Virus record (IMG/VR): IMGVR_UViG_2571042438_000008
Length of the DNA: 47,797 nucleotides
Source of the DNA: a virus
Lineage: Duplodnaviria; Heunggongvirae; Uroviricota; Caudoviricetes
Reading direction: 5' to 3' (one strand)
The notes beneath the pieces were generated by a model that saw nothing but the letters and a program-made list of their open reading frames with translations, was not told the DNA's origin and made no database searches. The position numbers were made by a program, and so were the translations under genes. This document shows positions 3,784 through 44,736 of the stretch, one piece after another. Position 1 is the first letter of the stretch; each line of letters opens with the position of its first letter.

Positions 3784-4310
3784 AATTTAGTGATGAATGT
3801 TGAATCATCAGGAATATCATGCAATACCAATGCATGAGCACCTATTGTGACATTGTTTCCTATACGCACTTTGCCACCAAGAATGGTGGCATTACAACCA
3901 ATGGTCACATTATGCCCTATAACAATATCCATATCATTAAATTCCCCGCGAAGTCCAATAGTTACTCCGGGCTTAATTGAACAATTTTCACCGATTGTTA
4001 CTTTGTGACCGATAACAACACTGTTGAGATAAGAAATATCAAAGCCTTTCCCTATATTTACAGTTAAAGGGACTGTTACATTATATTTATCAAGAATGAA
4101 ACGTTCTATTTTTCCCGCAATCTTCCGACAGTATCCGCCTTTATCAAAAAGGTATTTGGCTATGCGCCACCAAAATAAATAACGAACCCTTCTATGTTTT
4201 ATTGCGCGAACAATTGCCTTTCGCCAGGAGAAAGGACGCTCGCTACCGATTACTTCATAGTGAATACAGTCTTTAAGTTCATTAATATTCATATCTTTAT
4301 TATTCAGCAT
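3747..4310 (-). CDS. Hexapeptide-repeat (left-handed beta-helix) acetyltransferase, moron-like
   Basis: Repeated [LIV]-G-x-x-x-x hexapeptides ([47 protein letters not shown]); opposite strand to the tail operon. Confidence 0.6.
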
Positions 4311-4725
4311 AAGATAATCATGTGACCAATTATTGTAATAATTTTAATGGTATGTTTCTACTGGCTATCCAGCGTGTCTGATATCCAGTAACAAATCGTC
4401 AACACGGGTGCAATCAAATGGTGAGTGTTAAGACTGACCACTTATTACCAGGTATGAGTGGCCAGCATTAAATCAGAACAGCCCTTTAACTGAACTGGCC
4501 GCGCTGTTAAGGGATGATGTCACCTTATCTTTGAAGCCGGACAGCATATTGCTGAACGATGAGTTTACCGCAGGTTTCTGGCTGGGAATCATTGACTGGA
4601 GTTAGGCCAGTAGTATGATGCTCGCAAAACGAGATCCAATTTAGATCCTTTTACTGGTGGATTATCGTTCGATCAGTGAGAGACTTCGTGCATGACCGAA
4701 AGTGTTGTGGTAGAGTTCTCTTAAA

Positions 4726-4740
4726 ACCACGTAACGTGGT
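4726..4740. promoter_or_regulatory. Repressor-type operator dyad ACCACGTAACGTGGT in the repA upstream region
   Basis: Perfect 5-N5-5 inverted repeat identical in arms to the three dyads in the cI/cro-like intergenic region; followed directly by TATGAT (4741-4746). Confidence 0.5.
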
Positions 4741-4780
4741 TATGATTGTGGGTGTCTGGTTGGAAAGTGACCAGATATGG

Positions 4781-4861
4781 AAACAAAAAGCCCGCAGATA
4801 AATCTGCGGGCTTCTTGCGACATCCACGGAAAACCAACAACTAACCATGGGCGCCTCGACA
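4781..4861 (-). ncRNA. Candidate CopA-like antisense RNA of the repA leader (~80 nt)
   Basis: Minus-strand perfect -10 TATAAT (plus coords 4868-4873) with weak -35; minus-strand intrinsic terminator (10-bp GC-rich stem 4789-4812 followed by a U-run); lies inside a 16-bp inverted repeat of the leader (4823-4838 / 4875-4890). Confidence 0.45.
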
Positions 4862-4905
4862 ACTCCCATTATACGTTGGTTTTCCGTGGACGCAAGAGCG
4901 AACAT

Positions 4906-5754
4906 ATGGATAGACCAATGCCGTCTCTACGTTCAGCTTACGTTTGTAATTTGTCGCCGGAGTTCCAGCCTCCAAAGCACCATACGCACAAGCTGCCGCT
5001 GGTGTTATCTGATGCTTTACAGCGCATTAATGGGCGTGATCTTACGTGTGAGGTTGCGTTCTACGTTAATCAACCGTCAGAGCGGAAGCGCCGGATAAAC
5101 GAGCATCGTCGTCGGGCGATTAATGCTGTGATCGCTGCGATTTTGCACCATGTAAACATCATTTCTAAGCGGGTTCTGGCCAGTGCTGAGGCGTTGGCTG
5201 ATTTTTGCGGCCTGTCTACCGTATCCGAAGCTGGGAACAAGTCTATAACGCGCTGTACAAGGGCGTTGTCGCAACTGAAAGCGTTAGGTTTTATTGATTA
5301 TGAACGTCGCTGGGATCGGGTGAATAAACAGTATTGGCCAGCGAAAATAGAGATTCGTGATCAACTGCTGGAAACCGTTGGTATTACTGAACAAGCATGG
5401 AGACGTGCGGTTAGCCAGAAACTTAATTACTTCAATGCGAAGAATAGCGAACGGCTTAAAAAAGCGATAACGGAGGCTGATTATAAGCGTATTGTTATTC
5501 AGGAGCAGATGGAGAATGTATGGCATCAGAGGAAGACGGCCAGAGAGATAAAGGCAAAACAGAAAGCAGCGGAGAGAGCTGCGCGTCTTGTTCGGGAAAA
5601 GGGAGAGGCCGAACTTCGTCATCAAATCACTAGAGAGGTTAGCCAGGAATTTGCTGATGGCATGTATCCTGGAGCTGACCTTGCATATTTACGATCCCTC
5701 GTTGAGCAGCGTTATAACAGGTTAAGAAAGACCTGGAAATCACTCCAACATTAA
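4906..5754 (+). CDS. repA: Replication initiator RepA, IncFII (RepFIIA) family
   Basis: Translation aligns with R100/R1 RepA1 as recalled (RRRAINAVIAAIL..., SITRCTRALSQLKALGFIDYE vs SITRATRALTFLSELGLITYQ); start chosen at the in-frame ATG 4906 by length; the ORF is open upstream to 4777. Confidence 0.85.
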   Translation: MDRPMPSLRSAYVCNLSPEFQPPKHHTHKLPLVLSDALQRINGRDLTCEVAFYVNQPSERKRRINEHRRRAINAVIAAILHHVNIISKRVLASAEALADFCGLSTVSEAGNKSITRCTRALSQLKALGFIDYERRWDRVNKQYWPAKIEIRDQLLETVGITEQAWRRAVSQKLNYFNAKNSERLKKAITEADYKRIVIQEQMENVWHQRKTAREIKAKQKAAERAARLVREKGEAELRHQITREVSQEFADGMYPGADLAYLRSLVEQRYNRLRKTWKSLQH

Positions 5755-5895
5755 CCCACCTGAATGATGAATCCGGTTTTACCGGAGGATTATCTACGTC
5801 GCAATAAAATATCTGTTCAAAAAACAATCTAAATTAATTTTCTCTAAACCGGAACACAGCAAAAATATCGCCTTTACAGGCATCGGCTAATAAAG

Positions 5896-5904
5896 TTATC
5901 CACA
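5896..5904 (+). promoter_or_regulatory. DnaA box TTATCCACA in the candidate oriR downstream of repA
   Basis: Perfect 9-mer consensus ~140 bp after the repA stop in an AT-rich tract, followed by a GC-rich hairpin cluster (6004-6200). Confidence 0.5.
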
Positions 5905-6385
5905 GTTTTGATATGTATATGCAAATGGTTTTTTATAATAGATGCACTAAACAAATAAATGCAAAATCACTTTCTTTTATTAAGACTTTCTTTATTTAAC
6001 TTACGCAGGCTTTGCCTGTGAATATGTTCGCCCTTGCAGCGAGCTAAAGCTCGCGCCGGTTCGAGTCGCTACGCTCAAATATACCTCCTCCGGCACTTGC
6101 CGGAGGCATGGAGCAGCCTGATCATCCTTTTCGAAACGGCGCGTTTCGAACTATACAAAATCAATTTATATAAGGCCGAAATAAGGCCTACGGCCGGGCT
6201 TTGCAGGAGGAAGGGGCGAGCCTTATCAATAAACGTCGAGAAATACGCACACAGTAGCCATCAGAACGCGATAAAACGTAAGAAACATCATTTCCTATTA
6301 GACATAGAAAACTTGTCTTATACGCAATGTAGTAAATTTCTATTGCCACATAGGAAAAGATTTCCTACCATCGTAGATATAATAA

Positions 6386-6685
6386 ATGGAGATGGTTATG
6401 GATAAAGATACTGTTTTAAAAATGTTGAATCCGGCTTGTTTAAAAAAAGCGGATGAATGGGAATCTCCTACATGTGGAGAAGTTCGGGCAGTCATTGGCC
6501 TCACCGGAATGAGTGGCTCGCAGTTGGCCAAAAAACTAGGCTTAAAAGATAGTCGCAATGTTCGCAACTGGCAGATGTTAAAGGAGTCCACATCCAGATC
6601 CAGCATTCCGTATGCAGCCTGGGCGCTGCTGTGTTACTTCGCTGGGTTAGGGTTAATCTTCATTGATAACAAAACAGATGTTTGA
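6386..6685 (+). CDS. Small XRE-type HTH protein with hydrophobic C-terminus
   Basis: HTH-like segment LTGMSGSQLAKKLGLKDSRNVRNWQ; C-terminal AAWALLCYFAGLGLIFI. Confidence 0.4.
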   Translation: MEMVMDKDTVLKMLNPACLKKADEWESPTCGEVRAVIGLTGMSGSQLAKKLGLKDSRNVRNWQMLKESTSRSSIPYAAWALLCYFAGLGLIFIDNKTDV

Positions 6686-11399: not shown

Positions 11400-11658
11400 T
11401 CGAGGCTAATCAAATGGTGGTGAGCCGTACAGGGTTAGCCTTACCGGACACAATGACGAACCGGCGCGGATTTCTCCGCCCCTGTACGACCCACCATAAT
11501 TTGGGCGTAACAGTGCTCTACGCATAAAAAAACCGCTAACGCGGTATGCGCCATCGTGTTATTCAGGAGGCTAATCCCGGCCGTAGATTTTGCTACGGCT
11601 CGGAAAGTGTCCACCAATGGCGCATTTATGTCAATACGGCGGGATTTTAACAGAGACA

Positions 11659-11673
11659 ACCACATAGCGTGGG
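11659..11673. promoter_or_regulatory. Degenerate operator-like dyad ACCAC-ATAGC-GTGGG upstream of the antirepressor operon
   Basis: 9/10 arm match to the ACCAC-N5-GTGGT dyad. Confidence 0.3.
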
Positions 11674-13996: not shown

Positions 13997-14011
13997 ACCA
14001 CAAAATGTGGT
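13997..14011. promoter_or_regulatory. Operator dyad ACCACAAAATGTGGT
   Basis: Perfect ACCAC-N5-GTGGT between the cI stop and the 13961 start. Confidence 0.5.
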
Positions 14012-14053: not shown

Positions 14054-14710
14054 TCATAACCAGTTGACAACACTAACTACGCGGCCAAGAACTTTATAAC
14101 GCTTAAATTCCTCGTTATTCAGATGCTTAGTGTTCATTTCAGCATCCCTTTCGGTTGACAGCATAACAGCATTGTCACCCGGTATGACTCTACAGTGCCT
14201 CAAAACAACCAGGCCATTTCTGTCTTCAAGGGCATAGATCCCCTCATGAATCTCTGTATCGTCTGTATTAATCAGGACTTGGGAGCCTGGGGATATTGTT
14301 GGTGACATTAACTCATCGTTGCTCTGGAGAACTGACAGAGACGATGGGTTGATGTTCTTGCTTCGTAGAATCTCCTGTTCTATCGCCAGCACTGGCTTTT
14401 CTCCGGCGTGCGATGCTATGTCATTTTTTATAGCTACAAGCCCAGGAATAACAGGAGCGTTAGTATTCTGGGGTGGGAACGGGTTATCTGTTAAGCACGC
14501 GATATAAGGCGCTGATGCTTTCAGGGCGTGCGCGATTTTCTTGATGGCAGGTATAGATGGTTGTCTTAATCCGGCCTCATAGTTCTGCAAGGTGCTTAAG
14601 CCTATTCCAGTGACTTGCTGGAGATCTCCGGCAGTCATGCCGGATTGTTTCCGTAGAGTCTGAATGCGCAGACCTATTTCTTTCTTGATGTTCTCGTCGT
14701 TGCTTTTCAT
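14054..14710 (-). CDS. CI-type prophage repressor (N-terminal XRE HTH plus C-terminal S24/LexA-like peptidase domain)
   Basis: HTH-like segment MTAGDLQQVTGIGLSTLQNYEAG; 218 aa with a C-terminal S24-type fold as judged from the translation; divergent from the cro-like gene with operators between. Confidence 0.85.
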   Translation of the reverse strand: MKSNDENIKKEIGLRIQTLRKQSGMTAGDLQQVTGIGLSTLQNYEAGLRQPSIPAIKKIAHALKASAPYIACLTDNPFPPQNTNAPVIPGLVAIKNDIASHAGEKPVLAIEQEILRSKNINPSSLSVLQSNDELMSPTISPGSQVLINTDDTEIHEGIYALEDRNGLVVLRHCRVIPGDNAVMLSTERDAEMNTKHLNNEEFKRYKVLGRVVSVVNWL

Positions 14711-14747: not shown

Positions 14748-14762
14748 ACCACATTTAGTGGT
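14748..14762. promoter_or_regulatory. Operator dyad ACCACATTTAGTGGT (cI-proximal)
   Basis: Perfect ACCAC-N5-GTGGT in the cI/cro-like intergenic region. Confidence 0.6.
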
Positions 14763-14829
14763 TTTCACATGGTAAGACGAGAGGTGGACCACAAATAGAA
14801 GGTTATTTTTTGTTTCGCCCATTGAAAAA

Positions 14830-14865
14830 CTCACGATATGTGGTTTTAATACCACGTATCGTGGT
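14830..14865. promoter_or_regulatory. Two adjacent operator dyads (CTCACGATATGTGGT 14830-14844; ACCACGTATCGTGGT 14851-14865), cro-like proximal
   Basis: Tandem dyads with 21-bp centre spacing just upstream of the 14885 start. Confidence 0.6.
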
Positions 14866-14884: not shown

Positions 14885-15379
14885 ATGACCTTTCAGGAGT
14901 GGGTTGACGAAAATGGAGGCCAAATTGGTGTTGCCAGAAAGTTTTGCTTTACGTCATCACTGATTGGTGCCTGGTATCGCTTCGAGAGATTCCCTCGTGC
15001 GGATAACCTGACGCTGCTGGTGGCGTATTCGGAAGGCCGGATTAACGTCCAGCAATGGGCGGCAGATTTTGCCGAACGTCAGCGCCAGCGTAGCGATGGC
15101 ACATCGGTTCGGCAGAACAAGATCAAAGGGAATCTCCCTGTTAACTGCTTATCAAGGCTGAAAGCGGTTTTCTCTGAGCTGGGGATGCCTGCGGAGCGTT
15201 GCAATCTACGCGGTCCGCGATTCATTGCTCGCTGGAAACACTCACACGTAACCGTTTCAGAGGTTCGTGATGCGATTACCGTGCTGGAGCTTAAGAATAA
15301 AGATTCCAGCGATATCGAGCTGATTCATAAGGAGATTAGCAACGCCCGGCGTTCAGCACTTGGGAGGCTTGAGGAATGA
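14885..15379 (+). CDS. Cro-like early regulator (putative)
   Basis: First gene of the rightward operon divergent from cI; N-terminal segment GGQIGVARKFCFTSSLIGAW resembles Cro/YdaS-type HTH. Confidence 0.4.
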   Translation: MTFQEWVDENGGQIGVARKFCFTSSLIGAWYRFERFPRADNLTLLVAYSEGRINVQQWAADFAERQRQRSDGTSVRQNKIKGNLPVNCLSRLKAVFSELGMPAERCNLRGPRFIARWKHSHVTVSEVRDAITVLELKNKDSSDIELIHKEISNARRSALGRLEE

Positions 15380-21233: not shown

Positions 21234-21379
21234 ACATTGCTTTTTTATTGATCGATTAACCACGATATGAAGGTTTTTTTATGGGGAAACCTTGTTTTAG
21301 GTGGTAACTGGGTGTAGTGTTTCATTTAACGTAGTAAAACTGCGTTAAGCGATTACCGCGTAATTTGTTGCTTTATGAA

Positions 21380-43745: not shown

Positions 43746-44736
43746 AACGCTTTTTGATGTTATATATCAGAATGTAAATATTACCGCTCATATGTCACCT
43801 GATGTTTTGTCAATGTCTTATACAGATAATGAAGATGGTCAGGTCGATGATATTTCTATTATATTAAAAAATGATGATGGGAAATGGTCTGGAGACTGGA
43901 CACCTAAAAAGGGTGATTTTATTGATTTGAGCTTTAAGCCTATAAATCAAATCGTCCTTGAGTGCGGGAAATTCCAGGTAGATGGCATAACTTGCTCTGG
44001 ACCACCTTCTGTGGTTGAGGTAACTGCTGTTTCTGTTCCTATTTCATCAGGCATTAGACGTGATTTAAAAAGTAATGCATGGGAAAAAACAACTCTTAAA
44101 GATATAGCAACTTCTATAGCTAAATTAGCTAACCTTGAACTGTTGTTTCTTATTGATGGTGATAGTAATCCATATTATGCACGTGAAGATCAAATGGAGG
44201 AAAGCGATTTAAAATTTCTCCATCGACTTTGCCAGGATGAAGGGTTGTCGTTAAAGGTCACTGATAGCCAATTAATAATATTTGCTCAAGAGATGTTTGA
44301 GCAAAAAGATCCTATCGCTACGCTTACGTTAGGTATTGATGAGATAATCAGATATAGCTTTAGCACACAATCTACAGATTTGTATAAAAGTTGCACGTGC
44401 AAATATCGCGTACCTAAAAAAAGAAAGTCGCTTTCGTATACTTGGGTAGATCCATCCGTAGAAGAAGGGTCGAATCTTAAGATAAGAAAACTGGTAGCTA
44501 ATTTAGATGAAGCAAAACGTAAGGCAAAGGCTGCTTTGCGGCTTAAAAATAGATATCAAAATACCGGATCTTTAGTATTGGTTGGAGACACCAGATTGGT
44601 AGCTGGTGTAACTATAAATCTGGAGGGATTCGGTTCATTTTCTGGAAAATATCTTATATCGAAAGCTGTGCATTCAATTGGGACTAGTGGTTATACCACC
44701 TCGATTGATGTCCGAAGAGTAATTAATGGGTATTAA
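43735..44736 (+). CDS. Baseplate hub / late control D-like protein (P2 gpD-like)
   Basis: 333 aa; position after gpX-like; central EESDLKFLHRLCQDEGL resembles the gpD family as recalled. Confidence 0.65.
   Translation: MLRKTLFDVIYQNVNITAHMSPDVLSMSYTDNEDGQVDDISIILKNDDGKWSGDWTPKKGDFIDLSFKPINQIVLECGKFQVDGITCSGPPSVVEVTAVSVPISSGIRRDLKSNAWEKTTLKDIATSIAKLANLELLFLIDGDSNPYYAREDQMEESDLKFLHRLCQDEGLSLKVTDSQLIIFAQEMFEQKDPIATLTLGIDEIIRYSFSTQSTDLYKSCTCKYRVPKKRKSLSYTWVDPSVEEGSNLKIRKLVANLDEAKRKAKAALRLKNRYQNTGSLVLVGDTRLVAGVTINLEGFGSFSGKYLISKAVHSIGTSGYTTSIDVRRVINGY

Follow-up and report, generated by a model that had tools for sequence, protein, structure and literature searches.

A candidate phage immunity operator at the repA promoter of a circular myovirus phage-plasmid with a distant IncFII-like replicon

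Genomic features of the phage-plasmid and its repA locus

The stretch analysed (hereafter the window) was the whole 47,797-nucleotide IMG/VR record IMGVR_UViG_2571042438_000008, a member of the Caudoviricetes. The analysis centred on its plasmid-type replication gene repA and on an ACCAC-N5-GTGGT dyad upstream of it, which resembles the operators in the immunity region of the same element. The window matched, at 100%, circular non-mobilizable Escherichia coli plasmids of about 47-49 kb, such as NZ_CP040921 and NZ_CP048340. Nearly all of the annotation of these plasmids was of phage type (terminase, portal, capsid, sheath, tube, baseplate, tail fibres, and holins), and the non-phage genes were those for RepA, ParA, and a toxin-antitoxin pair. 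The repA control region was carried by 71 of the 5426 complete E. coli genomes and was located on a plasmid every time and never on the chromosome. The reference strain ATCC 25922 is among the 71, and its 48.5-kb plasmid NZ_CP009073 carries the dyad unchanged. The phage-type gene content and the plasmid-only occurrence in E. coli genomes therefore mark the element, as judged from its sequence, as a circular myovirus phage-plasmid. The repA region was also shared, at 99%, by three Yersinia phage records (vB_YpM_39, vB_YpM_41, and vB_YpM_44; host Yersinia pestis EV76-CN), which suggests that the family has virion-forming members. No study of replication or immunity in this phage-plasmid family was found in the literature, and the vB_YpM phages were likewise without a describing paper.

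The features of the repA locus and of the immunity region are shown in Table 1. The repA gene coded for an initiator of the IncFII_repA family, and its control region contained two promoter-like elements, the dyad, two hairpins, and a predicted antisense RNA gene. Elements with unlike upstream genes (acetyltransferase or DNA invertase) shared homology from about position 4564 on, and the region beyond this point, with the dyad, was therefore assigned to the replication module.

Table 1 Features of the repA locus, the immunity region, and the other operator-type sites in the window
Feature	Position	Strand	Basis or remark
Distal promoter-like element P1, TTGACT-16-TATGAT	4592..4619	+	Consensus scan, 10/12 matches
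GATC pair, 11 bp apart, just downstream of P1	4633..4647		Read from sequence
Candidate proximal repA promoter P2, extended -10 TGGTAGAGT	4708..4716	+	Conservation; predicted start near 4723
Operator-type dyad O-rep, ACCACGTAACGTGGT	4726..4740		Exact match, 30.0 bits, half-sites invariant across lineages
TATGAT hexamer	4741..4746	+	Probably not a functional -10
Short repA-leader hairpin (TCTGGT...ACCAGA)	4755..4775	+	By-eye reading of alignments
Predicted antisense RNA, about 79 nt (79-80)	4783..4861	-	Stem-loop, 15-nt loop, terminator hairpin, U-run
Long repA-leader hairpin, 16-bp arms (inverted repeat I1), loop GGGCGCCTCGACAACTCCCATTATA	4823..4890	+	Likely antisense target
repA, IncFII_repA family initiator	4906..5754	+	Pfam PF02387, E = 1.2e-43
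Origin-like region: DnaA box TTATCCACA (5896-5904), then AT-rich stretch	5896..6000		Sequence and position
Dyad upstream of the antirepressor (ORF6N/Rha) operon	11659..11673		Scan, one mismatch, 18.4 bits
Dyad between the cI terminator and the 124-aa/ParA operon	13997..14011		Dyad scan, exact
cI-like lysogeny repressor, N-terminal HTH_3, C-terminal S24-like region	14054..14710	-	Pfam HTH_3, residues 16-69
Immunity operator	14748..14762		Dyad scan, exact
Immunity operator, CTCAC...GTGGT	14830..14844		Dyad scan, 2 mismatches
Immunity operator	14851..14865		Dyad scan, exact
cro-position gene, 164 aa, no Pfam family	14885..15379	+	Open reading frame, Pfam

Operator-type dyads and fit of the repA site

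The perfect dyad that the initial annotation had placed upstream of repA was found there, with a TATGAT hexamer directly after it. Exact ACCAC-N5-GTGGT matches occurred five times in the window (starting at 4726, 13997, 14748, 14851, and 44001) against 0.01 expected from 100 dinucleotide shuffles, which agrees with the earlier estimate of well under one chance occurrence. When one mismatch was allowed, seven sites were obtained against 0.81 expected, the additional ones being at 11659 (ACCACATAGCGTGGG) and 26185. The initial annotation had listed three identical dyads between cI and the cro-like gene; those at 14748 and 14851 were exact, while the one at 14830 was a variant, CTCACGATATGTGGT, with two mismatches. 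The dyad reported downstream of cI (13997) was exact, and the degenerate one upstream of the antirepressor operon (11659) differed at one position.

The fifth exact dyad, ACCACCTTCTGTGGT at 44001-44015, had been overlooked earlier. It lies within a VgrG/gpD-like tail gene, it reads GTTGT in the close relatives and is missing from the Salmonella ones, and it scored low with the operator matrix described below, falling outside the top 14 matches. It was rejected as an operator, and because of its degeneration or loss in relatives and its poor score it is probably a non-functional chance or coding-sequence occurrence. A GTGGT pentamer at 4707-4711 was also rejected as a second weak operator near 4726, as it was not conserved and by eye had no partner half-site.

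A 23-column matrix was built from the cI-cro and cI-downstream sites of seven elements, with every repA site excluded from the training set. With this immunity-only matrix the repA site scored 30.0 bits, ranked third in the window, and exceeded two of the window's own training sites, while the best score in 20 shuffled windows was 12.0 bits. The central GTAAC of the repA site was the matrix consensus. The one-mismatch site at 11659 scored above the shuffled maximum as well.

As shown in Table 1, the gene for the helix-turn-helix (HTH) repressor is divergent from the cro-position gene, and the three immunity operators lie within the 174-bp gap between the two; this layout was the same in all relatives. 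By eye, the 14830 and 14851 sites flank a PR-like promoter (TTGAAA at 14822-14827, a 17-nt spacer, and TTTAAT at 14845-14850). Divergent genes with several dyads around their promoters form the layout of a lambda-type cI/Cro switch. Solved structures gave only generic HTH_3 matches for the repressor, which were uninformative on its specificity.

Conservation of the repA site across lineages

Divergent relatives were drawn from PLSDB, public assemblies, and IMG/VR. The ACCAC type was represented by five to six lineages (E. coli/Escherichia albertii, two Salmonella, Klebsiella aerogenes, Citrobacter amalonaticus, and the IMG/VR contig L033), in which RepA was 81-85% and the repressor 60-66% identical. 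The dyad upstream of repA was present in every one of these lineages with both half-sites unchanged, while its spacer varied (GTAAC, GTTGT, GATGC, and GATGT). The counterpart of the 13997 site was also a perfect dyad in every ACCAC-type lineage, and that of the 11659 site was perfect in one relative (L007).

A distant group of Citrobacter type, made up of the Citrobacter freundii contig L009 and metagenomic contigs, had the same gene order with a RepA of 60% and a repressor of 29% identity. No ACCAC-N5-GTGGT dyad was found in the three loci of the distant lineage that were scanned (L008-L010). The cI-cro region of the distant group was packed with TTGTAGT, and its immunity operators were mostly of GTAGT type. 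At the position aligned with the dyad of the window, the group carried ACTACAAAACGTAGC (ACTAC-N5-GTAGC), and the repA control region of L009, the one element checked, contained no ACCAC or GTGGT pentamer. The repressor also differed between the two lineages just ahead of the recognition helix of the HTH (GLSTLQNYE against PRSTIQNYE). A matrix for the GTAGT lineage had five training sites, which are too few, and the repA site was its top match outside the training set.

The covariation of the half-sites with the immunity type is regarded as supportive and not as decisive, and its weight comes from the exact positional homology of the site. A strict form of this covariation was given up, since the GTAGT-type element L032 has GTGGT halves too. 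The contig L010 was dropped as an informant on the operator slot, as its leader could not be aligned.

Two side observations were made on these distant relatives. L010 (8780-10000) is a contig of a conjugative plasmid with type IV secretion, and its RepA is 63% identical to that of the window. Two tandem HTH_3 genes stand directly upstream of its repA, and a LexA-box-like sequence, CTGTATAAATAAACAG, lies upstream of them; L010 may represent a different regulatory solution for a related initiator. In L009 (9516-10004), and also in L008 and L011, an open reading frame (ORF) of 162 amino acids, weakly similar to IncFII_repA, is found between the antisense target and repA. In L009 it overlaps the start of repA (ATGA), and it looks like a long coupled leader gene that replaces a short leader peptide.

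Promoters and operator geometry

The hexamers of the distal promoter P1, whose predicted start is near 4626, were kept in all lineages, reading TTGACG-16-TAGAAT in the distant L009 group. A GATC pair or triplet occupied the place after P1 in all aligned lineages, the distant Citrobacter type included; the pair could confer Dam/SeqA sensitivity and in this way time the transcription of repA after replication.

The TATGAT hexamer, which the initial annotation had described as a -10-like element next to the dyad, does adjoin it. It read TATGAA, TAAGAA, or TAAGTA in other ACCAC-type lineages and was missing in the L009 type, and it was rejected as a -10 because of this lack of conservation. A better candidate is the extended -10 of P2 at 4708-4716, since its form TGnTAGAGT (n being G, A, or C) was found in nearly all elements examined, the sole exception noted being L026 with TGCTAAAGT. 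The dyad was located 9-10 bp downstream of TGnTAGAGT in nearly all of the elements examined. With P2 as the -10, the dyad would span about +4 to +18, just past the start site, instead of lying in the spacer of the promoter. The distance of about 165 bp given earlier between the dyad and repA was correct for the ATG at 4906.

Between the dyad and the antisense gene, the short leader hairpin varied in sequence by lineage with its stem still possible, and its G-U pairs would form only on the plus strand (by-eye reading).

Proposed control of repA and alternative explanations

The best explanation of these results, and in our judgement a likely one, is that 4726-4740 is a genuine operator of the element's own cI-like repressor, which would repress repA on top of an antisense control. 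The proposal of the initial annotation that an immunity operator in the repA control region couples replication to lysogeny was thus supported, at the level of sequence comparison, by the fit to the immunity matrix, the invariant half-sites, and the lineage-matched site of the distant group.

Several points weigh against this explanation. The covariation is modest, with one base changed per half-site, and the immunity region of L032 uses GTGGT halves in a GTAGT-type element. With the GTAGT-lineage matrix the repA site scored 13.6 bits, which is within the genome-wide null (maximum 16.3), so that the support from this lineage depends on the aligned position. P2 has no recognisable -35, and for this reason was not called by the consensus scan. 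Phage N15 has two OL sites and repA of the window only one operator, which could make repression weak. A small hairpin of RNA or DNA would likewise be retained under base changes of this symmetric kind.

Under the proposed control, the repressor bound to 4726-4740 in a lysogen would block initiation at the proximal promoter P2, and it could act as a roadblock for transcripts from the distal P1, about 100 bp upstream. Both promoters would read into repA, and its expression in the lysogen would be low. The antisense RNA, running from about 4861 to 4783 on the minus strand, would set the copy number as the fine control. The repressor would become scarce on entry into a new cell, on a fall in copy number (the dose of the repressor following gene dose), or on inactivation by the antirepressor. 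repA would then be derepressed, and more initiation would take place at the downstream origin with its DnaA box at 5896. PHROGs annotation of the early operon gave no initiator and no helicase. Because no other initiator or helicase was recognisable, this burst probably feeds lytic replication too, and the same RepA and origin would serve establishment. What was observed is the site with its match to the immunity matrix, the way it is conserved, the promoter elements kept across lineages, and the antisense gene; from these we infer that the repressor binds, in which direction and how strongly it acts, and that RepA is used in lytic replication.

The explanation that survives best after this one, itself unlikely, is that the main ligand of the dyad is another protein, either that of the cro-position gene or the 124-amino-acid protein encoded beside 13997, neither of which has a known family. 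If the ligand were the Cro-type protein, shutdown or modulation of repA would fall in lytic growth and not in lysogeny. Cro proteins share the operators of the repressor in lambda-type switches, and the 124-aa/ParA operon has the 13997 dyad immediately upstream, at a place often bound by autoregulatory partition proteins. However, a single dyad is atypical of a centromere, and a search for a centromere-like repeat array near the dyads found none. The three sites interleaved with the divergent promoters between the HTH repressor and cro-position genes are moreover the classic arrangement of a repressor, and the Cro proteins of PY54 and phiKO2 bind OR3 alone, leaving the OL region near repA unbound (PMC4488713, PMC4997575).

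It is improbable, somewhat more so than the previous explanation, that the dyad, bound by the repressor, is a remote auxiliary operator of lambda OL type that loops to the cI-cro operators about 10 kb off or to 13997 and so tightens immunity. Isolated single operators are indeed found also at 13997 and 11659, a lone operator would be weak on its own, and long-range cooperation between OR and OL is an open question raised for the phiKO2 repressor CB (PMC4488713, PMC4997575). Against looping, the site is fixed in all lineages at 9-10 bp from a conserved -10 within the replication module, a placement that a helper site does not need, and a separation of about 9-10 kb far exceeds the lambda distance.

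Least probable of all is that the repA leader uses the dyad as a hairpin at the nucleic-acid level, with a 5-bp stem and a 5-nt loop, in mRNA stability or processing for instance, and that its likeness to the operators is coincidental: the dyad would be transcribed from P1 or from a start near 4723, the C-to-T and G-to-A changes of the distant lineage retain 4/5 pairs, and the adjoining leader has other structured elements, but a 5-bp stem is only marginally stable, in none of the five to six lineages has it changed to other complementary pairs, and the hairpin leaves unexplained both why the stem equals the lineage's own operator half-sites in the two immunity types and why the A/T-rich flanks and spacer match the operator matrix (30 bits). 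On the sequences compared, none of the three appears to explain jointly, as well as an operator of the cI-like repressor does, the fit to the matrix, the fixed spacing from the -10, and the lineage-specific half-site.

Comparison with known systems

In N15, repA transcription and copy number fall when the repressor CB binds its two OL operators, which overlap the repA promoter and are not bound by Cro; binding of CB to OL was demonstrated by electrophoretic mobility shift assay for N15 and phiKO2 (PMC4488713, PMC4997575). The window likewise has an immunity-type operator at the repA promoter (an exact dyad of 30.0 bits at a fixed position), a single repA that appears to serve the element, and an antirepressor locus. 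The N15 type is a linear siphovirus that has telomeres, the window a circular myovirus. Its RepA is a small protein of the IncFII_repA family under predicted antisense control and unrelated to N15 RepA. There is one operator at repA instead of two, it has the form ACCAC-N5-GTGGT in contrast to the 16-bp T-A-N10-T-A sites of N15, and unlike in N15 and phiKO2 it is just downstream of the predicted start site. With an IncFII_repA family RepA, a circular myovirus genome, and another operator sequence, common descent with the telomere phages was not indicated, and since the components are unrelated to those of N15, the resemblance is convergent and functional. That the prophage repressor governs repA is an established principle for N15 and phiKO2, to which the present family, a common one, would add a variant.

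In the IncFII plasmid R100, copB (84 amino acids) is followed by TTGAGT-17-TAGATT preceded by TGC, and then by CopA, tap, and repA. The replicon of the window shares with IncFII the Pfam family of RepA, tandem promoters into repA, a predicted antisense RNA from within the leader, a putative origin with a DnaA box downstream of repA, and, as predicted, a proximal promoter on which a dosage-dependent repressor acts. Downstream of copB, the R100 promoter has the extended -10 TGCTAGATT, which is of the same type as TGnTAGAGT. The differences are as follows. The promoters of the window are only about 110 bp apart with no copB between them (no plus-strand ORF of at least 60 amino acids was found between 4620 and 4710), and the predicted repressor is a phage immunity protein encoded 9 kb off. 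RepA is 40% identical to R100 RepA over 97 amino acids. Rfam gave no CopA match for the antisense RNA, and there was no evident coupled leader peptide of Tap type.

The CopB operator overlaps the -35 of its promoter, whereas the operator of the window is downstream of the -10. The initial annotation had equated the position of the dyad with that of the CopB operator; the same promoter slot is used, and the exact position differs. Its description of repA as IncFII-type was upheld for the protein family (PF02387), while the replicon as a whole is only distantly IncFII-like, with the low RepA identity and without CopA and copB. By its sequence it is a distant IncFII-like replicon with a phage-type operator instead of the CopB site at its proximal promoter.

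In phage P1, the C1 repressor controls the lytic replicon repL, and the plasmid replicon (repA/oriR, iteron-controlled) is not under C1. The two systems are alike in that a plasmid prophage has one of its replication functions under an immunity repressor, as predicted for the window. They differ in that phage P1 has two separate replicons, whereas in the window the only recognisable initiator carries the operator.

It is possible, though we propose it tentatively, that the transcriptional arm of an IncFII-like copy control has passed from CopB to the immunity repressor, so that one antisense-controlled replicon would serve as the plasmid replicon with the repressor and as the lytic or establishment replicon without it. 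The same repressor would also act at the partition (13997) and antirepressor (11659) operons and would coordinate replication, segregation, and induction. Phage-plasmids reconcile strict plasmid copy control with rapid phage amplification, and to our knowledge the switch between the replication regimes is known in only a few models (phage P1 and N15). If the proposal is true, the family would represent a third, independent solution on an IncFII-like antisense-controlled replicon, with a phage repressor in the CopB slot. This would be of relevance to the typing of these plasmids, to their incompatibility, and to estimates of their copy number in clinical genomes.

The repA start, antisense RNA, and origin

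The RefSeq start of repA is the ATG at 4777, giving 325-326 amino acids, while the homologues from Salmonella, Klebsiella, and Citrobacter have 277. The PF02387 domain begins only at residue 52 of the ORF started at 4777. For these two reasons the annotated start is probably too far upstream, and the true start is probably 4906 or 4918. A start at 4777 would also run the coding sequence through the antisense terminator and the leader hairpin.

The promoter of the antisense RNA (TTGCGT-16-TATAAT, minus strand 4895-4868) was kept in all lineages, and the predicted fold of the RNA was -39.2 kcal/mol (z = -5.95). An Rfam search of 4300-6400 at E <= 1 found no CopA (RF00042), while the same search found CopA at 106 bits in the positive control R100. 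The partial, terminator-like Rfam matches to Thr_leader and CsrC were rejected as chance matches on the antisense terminator. In the long leader hairpin, the changes in the arms were compensatory in Salmonella, and the loop was conserved in all lineages. A leader ORF from 4847 had about 20 conserved codons, ended 32-83 codons on depending on the lineage, and was without an ATG in the L009 group.

As a separate observation, the antisense loop at 4836-4846 differed by substitutions and 3-bp indels between E. coli elements that were otherwise 98-99% identical there. Such variability would be expected if the loop sets incompatibility and is under diversifying selection.

The DnaA box TTATCCACA was the only perfect one in the window and is located about 140 bp past the repA stop, in the putative origin. 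The oriR of IncFII plasmids likewise lies downstream of repA.

Other operator sites, the repressor, and the hybrid sites

The operon beside the 13997 dyad codes for the 124-amino-acid protein, a type Ib ParA, and an 82-amino-acid protein. The immunity repressor may also regulate these partition genes through 13997, or this site may be an OL-like helper.

Pfam did not call S24 in the repressor of the window, and its homologue in L009 gave a weak Peptidase_S24 match. By eye, the C-terminal half contained a linker Ala-Gly and a LMSPTISPGSQVLI motif, and the position that holds the catalytic Lys in LexA-type proteins read Leu/Arg. Prophage induction may depend on the ORF6N/Rha antirepressor rather than on self-cleavage of the repressor.

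On the minus strand, a TTGACA hexamer follows about 20 bp downstream of the 11659 dyad. The antirepressor operon opens, at 11525-11640 on the minus strand, with a hairpin and an intrinsic terminator (ACCGCGTTAGCGGT with a T-run) before its long ORFs. This leader layout recalls the small-RNA and terminator control of ant in phages P1/P7 (c4) and N15.

A hybrid site, AACCAC-N5-GAAGGTT, which combines an operator half with GAAGG, was found exactly twice in each ACCAC-type element scanned. In the window its copies were at 14788-14804, in the cI-cro intergenic region, and at 21259-21275, in the gap before the holin/lysis genes. The ends of the hybrid site were conserved and its central 5 bp were variable; it may be the target of another regulator, or of a mixed complex connecting the switch with the late genes.

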